From Gammaproteobacteria bacterium (GTDB lineage: Bacteria > Pseudomonadota > Gammaproteobacteria > GCA-001735895): 64,000 nucleotides of DNA. The notes under the pieces are model-generated. The model had not been told where the DNA came from, made no database searches, and worked only from the letters and a program-made list of their open reading frames with translations. The translations under genes and the position numbers were made by a program. Below, one piece after another: positions 25,283 through 25,762 of this stretch; the first letter of the stretch is position 1; each line of letters opens with the position of its first letter. The stretch is taken from positions 8,602-72,601 of the forward strand of contig JANTFI010000001.1 in the NCBI GenBank assembly GCA_024763505.1. The letters are read 5' to 3'.

Positions 25283-25762
25283 TTATTGTGCTGGCGCGGG
25301 TGCAGGAGCAGGAGTTGGTGCGGCAGGTGCTACCGGCGCATAGTTACCCCAGTACGGGTTGCTGCCCCAGCCATTGTAGCCATAGCCATCATGGCTGCGG
25401 TTGTAGAAATTACCGTTGCCATAGCCGTTGCCATAATAGTTTCCGTAATAATCGCCATAACCGTTGCCATAGCCATTACCATACCAGTCGGTGTCTGCGT
25501 TGGCATCCATATCTCCTTTGGCACGACCTTTGAACTGCATAGAAAAGTCCATTTCGCCATCTCCGGCACCACGTCCACGGCCCCGGCCTGTGCCTCGACC
25601 ATCGCCTCGACCGTAGTAATTACCATAACCATTGCCATAACCACTACCGTTTCCATAGTAATTGCCATATCCGTTATTATTGTTGTTGTCACCCCAGAAA
25701 GCCTGGGCAGAAGTTGCAGCCAGAATGGCGGCAATTGCAGTTGCTGTGATCAGTTTTTTCAT
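25283..25762 (-). CDS. Secreted glycine/tyrosine-rich low-complexity repeat protein (sulfur-globule-protein-like).
   Basis: 159 aa. Signal peptide MKKLITATAIAAILAATSAQA, then GYGNGYGNYYG repeats, an RG-rich stretch and a Pro/Ala tail. Confidence 0.6.
   Translation of the reverse strand: MKKLITATAIAAILAATSAQAFWGDNNNNNGYGNYYGNGSGYGNGYGNYYGRGDGRGTGRGRGRGAGDGEMDFSMQFKGRAKGDMDANADTDWYGNGYGNGYGDYYGNYYGNGYGNGNFYNRSHDGYGYNGWGSNPYWGNYAPVAPAAPTPAPAPAPAQ

Follow-up and report, generated by a model that had tools for sequence, protein, structure and literature searches.

A probable divergent member of the sulfur-globule protein family encoded between purL and msrPQ in an uncultured gammaproteobacterium

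Introduction

A 64-kb stretch of DNA from an uncultured gammaproteobacterium (contig JANTFI010000001.1; the window, in what follows, is this whole stretch) carries on its minus strand, at 25283..25762, a 159-amino-acid open reading frame (ORF) with an ATG start, whose product is rich in glycine and tyrosine repeats. The question raised by this locus is whether the protein is related to the sulfur-globule proteins (SGPs, or Sgps), as a sequence-only reading of the window had proposed, or resembles them in composition alone, and whether it might coat sulfur globules in its host. Comparisons at the sequence level favor homology to the SGP family (SgpA/SgpB or "CV1/CV2" type, Pfam PF17228), of which the protein would be a divergent member, with a probability that we put at roughly 0.85. 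A role of the protein as the coat of periplasmic sulfur globules in its host is the further claim; we are less confident of it, but it seems fairly probable.

In Allochromatium vinosum, periplasmic sulfur globules are enveloped by the Sgps, small proteins made as precursors of 11–13 kDa with Sec signal peptides, and between one and six sgp copies per genome have been reported in known sulfur bacteria (PMC10386293). SgpD has been studied in A. vinosum as a fusion with a C-terminal mCherry tag (PMC10386293), and a double mutant in sgpB and sgpC (SgpC, Alvin_1325) is unable to make globules (Prange et al. 2004, cited in PMC7356093). Another example is Beggiatoa leptomitoformis, in which the Sgp of strain D-402 (ALG67575.1) has been identified by mass spectrometry (PMC7356093, supplement) and the transposon disruption of sgp in strain D-401 goes along with an inability to form sulfur globules and to grow lithotrophically (PMC7356093). 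The proteins EIJ43877.1 of B. alba and OUD13142.1 of Thioflexithrix have been listed together with ALG67575.1 as supposed Sgps (PMC7356093). Work on A. vinosum (PMC10386293) and on B. leptomitoformis (PMC7356093) has addressed envelope presence, induction, and the requirement for globule formation.

Relation to the sulfur-globule protein family

The translation of the ORF falls into six consecutive parts (Table 1). The first of them shows, by inspection, the features of a Sec-type signal peptide (an MKK n-region, a hydrophobic h-region, and an A-x-A motif, with neither a lipobox cysteine nor a twin-arginine motif), in agreement with the cleavable signal peptide of the sequence-only reading. 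The mature part (138 amino acids, 14.7 kDa) contains 26% glycine, 14.5% tyrosine, and 14.5% asparagine, has an isoelectric point (pI) of 5.1, lacks cysteine, and is polar on the hydropathy scale (grand average of hydropathy, GRAVY, −1.29). It had been described as almost entirely repetitive. The Gly-Tyr/Gly-Asn (GY/GN) repeats, the Arg-Gly (RG) block, and the Ala/Pro tail are indeed present, but the repeats cover only about 77 of the 138 mature residues, and a non-repetitive acidic core of 26 residues (DGEMDFSMQFKGRAKGDMDANADTDW) had been overlooked. An AlphaFold2 model is disordered (mean predicted local distance difference test, pLDDT, 49; predicted template modeling score 0.16), and only the Ala/Pro tail reaches a pLDDT of 75–82.

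Most relatives of the protein match PF17228, whose gathering threshold is 26.7 bits. Nineteen relatives were found by phmmer, the best being 56% identical and coming from a JGI metagenome; when these 19 were aligned, PF17228 matched 17 of them, with a best E of 1.6e-11. A profile search collected 86 proteins, mostly PF17228-positive, among them P0027 from the Solemya velum gill symbiont (named "Sulfur globule protein CV1" in UniRef; 45.4 bits on PF17228), P0068 (named "sulfur globule protein CV1" by NCBI), and one protein of an uncultured Thiotrichaceae bacterium. The family is narrow: among 1.84 billion representatives, all scanned with HMMER, only 220 proteins reached E ≤ 0.001. A related-locus search seeded with a 3-sequence alignment showed that several metagenome-assembled genomes (MAGs) carry two SGP-like paralogues.

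Among the orthologues at the same genomic position, those of loci L006 and L011 score 27.5 and 27.3 bits on PF17228, at the Pfam cut-off, and that of L008 scores 23.8 bits; other members of the query clade give 25.5, 22.8, and 13.3 bits. The Sgps of B. leptomitoformis (27.7 bits), B. alba (22.7 bits), and Thioflexithrix (21.4 bits) are likewise borderline. Since orthologues and Beggiatoaceae Sgps fall in the same range, the cut-off does not separate members from non-members at such a distance. The clade is also connected to strong Pfam members by intermediates, namely P0086 (51.5 bits), with GDGDMDFSMGFSGKARG, and P0013 (40.7 bits), with DGEMDFSMTFKGRGRG; in P0069 and P0083 the core reads GEGEFNMNFSGKGRGDMDA[DN]TDW.

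The evidence beyond composition comes from the acidic core, which is conserved across the family. Twenty PF17228-positive proteins that do not belong to the query clade were used, without their signal peptides, to build a hidden Markov model (HMM). On the core HMM, the real core scores 23.7 bits and its reversed version 2.9 bits, and none of 5000 shuffles reaches the real score (mean −1.3 bits, standard deviation 4.1, maximum 12.1). The alignment yields the motif G-x-[DA]-D-G-E-x-D-F-[ST]-Phi-x-F-x-x-x-A-[RK], and the PF17228-positive metagenomic proteins have it in common with the query. When all six-frame ORFs of the window were scanned with the core HMM, this ORF alone stood out (E 5.9e-5; the next one 1.9), and the 64-kb window gave no second SGP-like gene. 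In hhalign, the family profile A2 aligned with the B. leptomitoformis Sgp ALG67575.1 at a probability of 93.5% (E 2.3e-7), placing GEMDFSMQFKGRAKG against GWGDFNMSMGGGGRG. Similarity beyond composition in a non-repetitive central motif is thus found by both the core HMM and hhalign, and it is accompanied by two other marks of family membership, a cleavable Sec signal peptide (by inspection) and a small mature size (14.7 kDa, within about 8–15 kDa) with Gly/Tyr-rich repeats.

The arrangement of the parts points in the same direction. Members of the family have in common a collinear architecture, made up of a signal peptide followed at the cleavage junction by [FW]WG, an aromatic and Gly-rich region, an acidic DF[SN]M/DF[ST]M core, a GY-rich region, and an Ala/Pro tail. 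The junction is also that of the Beggiatoa Sgp, which resembles the window protein in size (a precursor of 152 amino acids, about 15 kDa, compared with 159 amino acids), in having a signal peptide followed by [FW]WG, in its Gly/Tyr-rich, cysteine-free, and acidic mature part, and in its Ala/Pro-rich C-terminus (the Beggiatoa protein ends in ...PAPAAPEAK). Its central core, G-x-G-D-F-N-M-S-M-G-G-G-G-R-G, is the segment that aligns with GEMDFSMQFKGRAKG. The two differ in composition, the Beggiatoa Sgps being rich in Pro, Ala, and Trp (P 15–17%, N 3–5%) with YGGYAPAP-type repeats, whereas the window protein has 14.5% Asn and GYGN repeats. Moreover, the window protein contains an RG block and an extended acidic segment (DMDANADTDW), both of which the Beggiatoa Sgp lacks.

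A closer parallel is P0027 (JV46_04050) of the S. velum symbiont. Like the query clade, this protein has an RG block (GRGEGRGRGRGKGRG) followed by an F-x-F-S-M core and an acidic D-A-D-A-D-T-E/D segment; it also ends in an Ala/Pro tail and is polar (GRAVY −1.25) with an acidic pI. The RG block and the extended DMDA-x-x-DTDW segment of the query clade are features found in the Solemya symbiont proteins and absent from the Beggiatoa and the short classic forms. The genes are alike as well in standing alone among housekeeping genes, that of P0027 in two copies. On the other hand, P0027 is about 41% identical over only half of the query, is shorter (135 amino acids) and less rich in GY repeats (G 15%), and its gene occupies another genomic position.

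Sulfur metabolism around relatives and proposed role

A link between SGP-like genes and sulfur oxidation has been found in two related loci. In L014 (MAG JABDQZ), an SGP-like gene has a sox cluster about 1 kb upstream of it, made up of soxX, soxA, a LysM gene, soxY (C-terminal GGCGG), soxZ, and soxB (with a twin-arginine translocation signal). L013 (MAG JARRJW) has this cluster too, at a distance of about 3 kb from its SGP-like gene and with a histidine kinase/response regulator pair between them. Pfam confirms SoxA, SoxY, SoxZ, and the metallophosphoesterase/5'-nucleotidase architecture of SoxB. The two MAGs are related (SoxB 89% identical), and their SGP-like proteins (L013p, L014p) form a sister subfamily, which shares the core with the query at about 42–46% identity. 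When the Sox proteins of L014 were searched by tblastn in the window and in every other locus, no further sox genes came up, and no sulfur genes were found in the neighborhoods of P0013, P0027, P0024, and P0004; other relatives also lie amid housekeeping genes. The S. velum symbiont, the sole named host genome among the matches, carries two identical SGP-like copies in housekeeping neighborhoods, so the scattered, stand-alone position of the gene described here also occurs in a named host.

Taken as an SGP, the protein could act as follows. As predicted from consensus signals, transcription would start at a promoter of the gene's own, stop at its own terminator, and cover this gene only. The pre-protein would be exported by the Sec pathway and cut after AQA, and the mature protein, an intrinsically disordered and acidic chain of about 14.7 kDa that has no cysteine, might by homology self-assemble in the periplasm into a thin envelope around stored zero-valent sulfur. 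More speculatively, the Gly/Tyr/Asn repeats might build a sulfur-facing, sheet-like, aromatic-rich layer; the acidic core, G-[DE]-G-E-x-D-F-[ST]-M-x-F-K-G-R, might serve as a family-specific subunit contact or nucleation element; the Ala/Pro tail could be an extended spacer; and the RG block could pair with the acidic block. Globules had been proposed to be either periplasmic or extracellular. The latter are less likely, because envelopes of the Sgp type have been described for intracellular (periplasmic) globules (PMC10386293).

If this is so, the uncultured host, whose lineage is represented by MAGs alone, would be a sulfur oxidizer that stores sulfur in its periplasm, and the gene would be useful as a marker. 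The family is a known one and no new kind of system is involved, so that the understanding of globule construction is unchanged. The case also exposes an annotation gap, since the protein scores below the Pfam cut-off, lies opposite a longer antisense ORF, and is missing in its exact form from a very large protein collection in which its neighbors are present (see below). The acidic core would be a better handle on divergent Sgps than either the repeats or the current Pfam threshold.

Points against the assignment and alternative explanations

Several results weigh against the interpretation of the protein as an SGP that coats globules. The query alone falls short of the PF17228 cut-off, with 15.9 bits (E 0.024), and Pfam and NCBIfam scans of it gave sub-threshold matches only. 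In pairwise BLASTP with composition adjustment, the query and the Beggiatoa Sgp matched nowhere outside the signal peptide. The whole-length HMM gives the query 11.9 bits and the reversed query 15.4 bits; this score is uninformative because it comes from the GYG repeats, which are nearly palindromic, and the likeness to classic SGPs over the whole length was accordingly discarded as evidence. The evidence that goes beyond composition comes from a motif of about 20 residues. The founding members of PF17228, SgpA and SgpB of A. vinosum (CV1/CV2; Alvin_1905, Alvin_0358), were compared with the query by their description in PMC10386293. The A. vinosum Sgps have been described as extremely hydrophobic (PMC10386293), whereas the query is polar. 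In fact, the whole query clade departs from the classic SGPs: it is about 50% longer (131–142 compared with 79–91 mature residues), richer in Asn (10–20%, except for L051 with 4.5%), and more polar (GRAVY −1.1 to −1.3 compared with −0.3 to −0.9). The sox adjacency is supportive, but it concerns one lineage (the two related MAGs) and a different subfamily. Finally, no sox, dsr, sHdr, sqr, or fcc gene was found in the 64-kb window, so that globule formation by this organism is inferred from this one gene.

The sulfur-linked hints that had been seen elsewhere in the window do not fill this gap. The ORF proposed as DsrC/TusE-like (15747–16265, plus strand, 172 amino acids) matches TIGR03342 only over residues 45–72, with 33.5 bits against a cut-off of 53.5, and its C-terminus (...DTDRHYGTAF) has no conserved cysteines, a further point on the negative side; with a fragmentary match of about 28 residues and no C-terminal cysteine, it was rejected as a functional DsrC/TusE. 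The exported tandem rhodanese (1761–2549) is generic, and no NCBIfam model reaches its cut-off on it. The multihaem cytochromes, of 594 amino acids with 21 CxxCH motifs (43808–45592) and of 754 amino acids with 27 (45771–48035), give only weak matches, all to DmsE-family decahaem models, and resemble electron conduits of the DmsE/MtrA type and not sulfur enzymes. They are followed by a 709-amino-acid protein with a signal peptide, probably an outer-membrane barrel (region 43233–50234), and the three proteins may form an electron conduit of the porin–cytochrome type.

One alternative is that the protein is a true SGP-family homologue with another structural role, as a periplasmic or peptidoglycan-associated matrix or as the coat of some other inclusion, so that it would give no indication of sulfur storage. 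We regard it as unlikely. The greater length and polarity of the query clade and the lack of sulfur genes in the window would agree with it, and the giant multihaem cytochromes suggest a different lithotrophic or electron-transfer lifestyle. Some relatives show, in addition, that the module can serve as a cell-envelope element: in P0004, P0007, P0025, P0044, and P0065 (e.g., L024:10001–10819), an SGP-like N-terminal module is fused to a C-terminal OmpA peptidoglycan-binding domain, a predicted architecture in which the cell wall would serve as the anchor of the module. Further members carry long Q/A/K/E-rich, coiled-coil-like C-terminal extensions (L005:5633–6244, L015:7998–8627, L007:8001–8612, L010:3496–4371; P0003, P0006, P0010, P0028), which recall SgpD by its description. 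Against another role, the family members with a named host all come from sulfur oxidizers or Thiotrichaceae, L013 and L014 have sox genes next to their SGP-like genes, the family as a whole is very narrow, and the OmpA fusion is still compatible with the anchoring of periplasmic globules. A more specific version, which we consider decidedly improbable, is that the long, Asn/RG-rich, polar clade fixed between purL and msrPQ, in a lineage that has the 21- and 27-haem cytochromes as well, forms a periplasmic scaffold for another deposit or for envelope organization, for instance in extracellular electron transfer or around another mineral or inclusion. Were this true, the OmpA-fused and coiled-coil-extended relatives would make up a broader, undescribed family of periplasmic matrix proteins.

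Convergence is still harder to maintain and seems very improbable; on this view, the protein would be a low-complexity Gly/Tyr product, secreted and of some generic structural or "cuticle-like" kind, whose likeness to SGPs is only compositional. It would account for the equal standing of the reversed sequence on the whole-length HMM, for the score below the PF17228 cut-off, and for the null BLASTP comparison with the Beggiatoa Sgp, and equally weak matches to the TrAA12-like family PF22807 (14–28 bits) show that composition alone yields matches. For the query, a TrAA12-like identity was rejected, since its 14.3 bits (cut-off 30.9) come from a low-complexity stretch (profile positions 383–430 of 463) and are compositional. 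What convergence does not explain is that the non-repetitive core scores above its reversed version and above all of its shuffles, with hhalign in agreement, that continuous intermediates with near-identical cores and clear PF17228 scores exist (P0086, P0013), and that the order of the five architectural elements is constant throughout. The relation to sulfur-globule envelope proteins put forward by the sequence-only reading is in this way upheld, by the controlled core HMM, by hhalign to the Beggiatoa Sgp, by the Pfam matches of most homologues, and by the two syntenic orthologues at the cut-off.

The gene and its position

The SGP-like gene is flanked by purL (20907–24887, plus strand) and msrPQ (25962–27505, plus strand). 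Orthologues hold the same purL–X–msrP–msrQ position in the genome loci L006, L008, and L011, and the position is also held in the metagenome loci L038, L045, L051, L027, L049, L044, and L050; in locus L001 the orthologue adjoins purL only. Relative to five relatives, including the syntenic L008, L045, and L027, the ratio of nonsynonymous to synonymous substitution rates (dN/dS) in the minus-strand frame is 0.07–0.13, a range that covers the comparisons with an estimable dS, which was saturated in the other five. The 159-amino-acid minus-strand ORF is a real, conserved gene under purifying selection, as judged from its Shine–Dalgarno sequence, promoter-like hexamers, terminator, syntenic orthologues, and low dN/dS. 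By the predicted signals it looks like a single transcription unit, although the promoter consensus scan found four sites when 1.9 were expected. The DNA of the ORF contains imperfect 12/24-nt tandem repeats at 25412–25483 and 25619–25648.

On the opposite strand, an antisense ORF (25253..25807, plus strand; 184 amino acids, rich in I, V, A, and T) exceeds the gene in length; it is a by-product of the repeats, the mirror image of the GY codons. A collection of 15 billion proteins contains PurL (100% identity) and MsrQ of the same contig, but neither the exact 159-amino-acid protein nor any start variant of the antisense ORF. The SGP-like gene was either not called or not stored, which suggests that automatic annotation has missed or miscalled it. 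The view that the minus strand carries no real gene, the DNA being non-coding repeats or the longer antisense ORF giving the true product, could draw on that absence and on the greater length of the antisense ORF, but is effectively refuted by the low dN/dS in the minus-strand frame, by dozens of homologues with conserved signal peptides and cores, by the expression signals on the minus strand, and by the equal absence of the antisense variants from the collection.

Table 1. Coordinates of the SGP-like gene, its predicted signals and the parts of its product in the window, and of the sox neighborhoods in two related loci
Feature	Position	Strand	Basis or remark
Coding sequence, SGP-like protein, 159 amino acids + stop	25283..25762	-	conserved, syntenic, purifying selection
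Sec-type signal peptide MKKLITATAIAAILAATSAQA, residues 1–21, predicted cleavage AQA/FWG	25700..25762	-	sequence inspection
N-terminal Gly/Tyr/Asn repeat region FWGDNNNNNGYGNYYGNGSGYGNGYGNYY, residues 22–50, begins FWG	25613..25699	-	
Arg-Gly block GRGDGRGTGRGRGRGAG, residues 51–67	25562..25612	-	kept in orthologues and Solemya symbiont P0027
Non-repetitive acidic core DGEMDFSMQFKGRAKGDMDANADTDW, residues 68–93, family signature	25484..25561	-	core HMM, hhalign
C-terminal Gly/Tyr/Asn repeat region YGNGYGNGYGDYYGNYYGNGYGNGNFYNRSHDGYGYNGWGSNPYWGNY, residues 94–141	25340..25483	-	
Ala/Pro-rich tail APVAPAAPTPAPAPAPAQ, residues 142–159	25286..25339	-	counterparts in family members and Beggiatoa Sgp
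Shine–Dalgarno AGGAGA, 6 nt 5' of ATG	25769..25774	-	direct sequence reading
Promoter-like site TTGACT, 17-nt spacer, TATTTT; about 45 nt upstream of start codon	25807..25835	-	consensus scan, prediction
Second promoter-like candidate	25841–25870		consensus scan, prediction
Strong intrinsic terminator GACGGGC-TGAT-GCCCGTC, then T8	25116..25141	-	predicted from sequence
sox cluster, locus L014	1681–6847		
SGP-like gene, locus L014	7881–8243		
sox cluster, locus L013	51–4585		
SGP-like gene, locus L013	7738–8097		

Other observations on related loci and the window

Relatives of the gene also occur in other arrangements. Tandem pairs of SGP-like paralogues are found in L007 (7354–7866 with 8001–8612) and L010 (3038–3433 with 3496–4371), and the SGP-like genes of L010 and L017 lie directly upstream of the genes for pyruvate dehydrogenase E1–E2–E3. 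In L022/L023 (6072–14586), the P0024 gene lies between that of a 1289-amino-acid protein without a Pfam match and those of a ParA/MipZ-like ATPase and a dynamin-like protein; these neighbors could be a positioning or remodeling module beside a globule-coat gene.

The rest of the window is devoted to housekeeping and regulation, with secF, flgGHI, malic enzyme, MMPL, mscS, pst–phoU–phoBR, a Ser/Thr kinase, and an ankyrin protein. The Ser/Thr protein kinase has a long tetratricopeptide repeat region and is encoded directly downstream of an extracytoplasmic function (ECF) sigma factor (33727–36955, minus strand), and the ankyrin protein (39782–41797, minus strand) is a 671-amino-acid product with a signal peptide and both ankyrin and Sel1 repeats. 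Finally, the purL ORF read from its first ATG gives 1326 amino acids, compared with about 1291 in most homologues, the extra residues (about 35) being N-terminal; its true start is probably a downstream Met.

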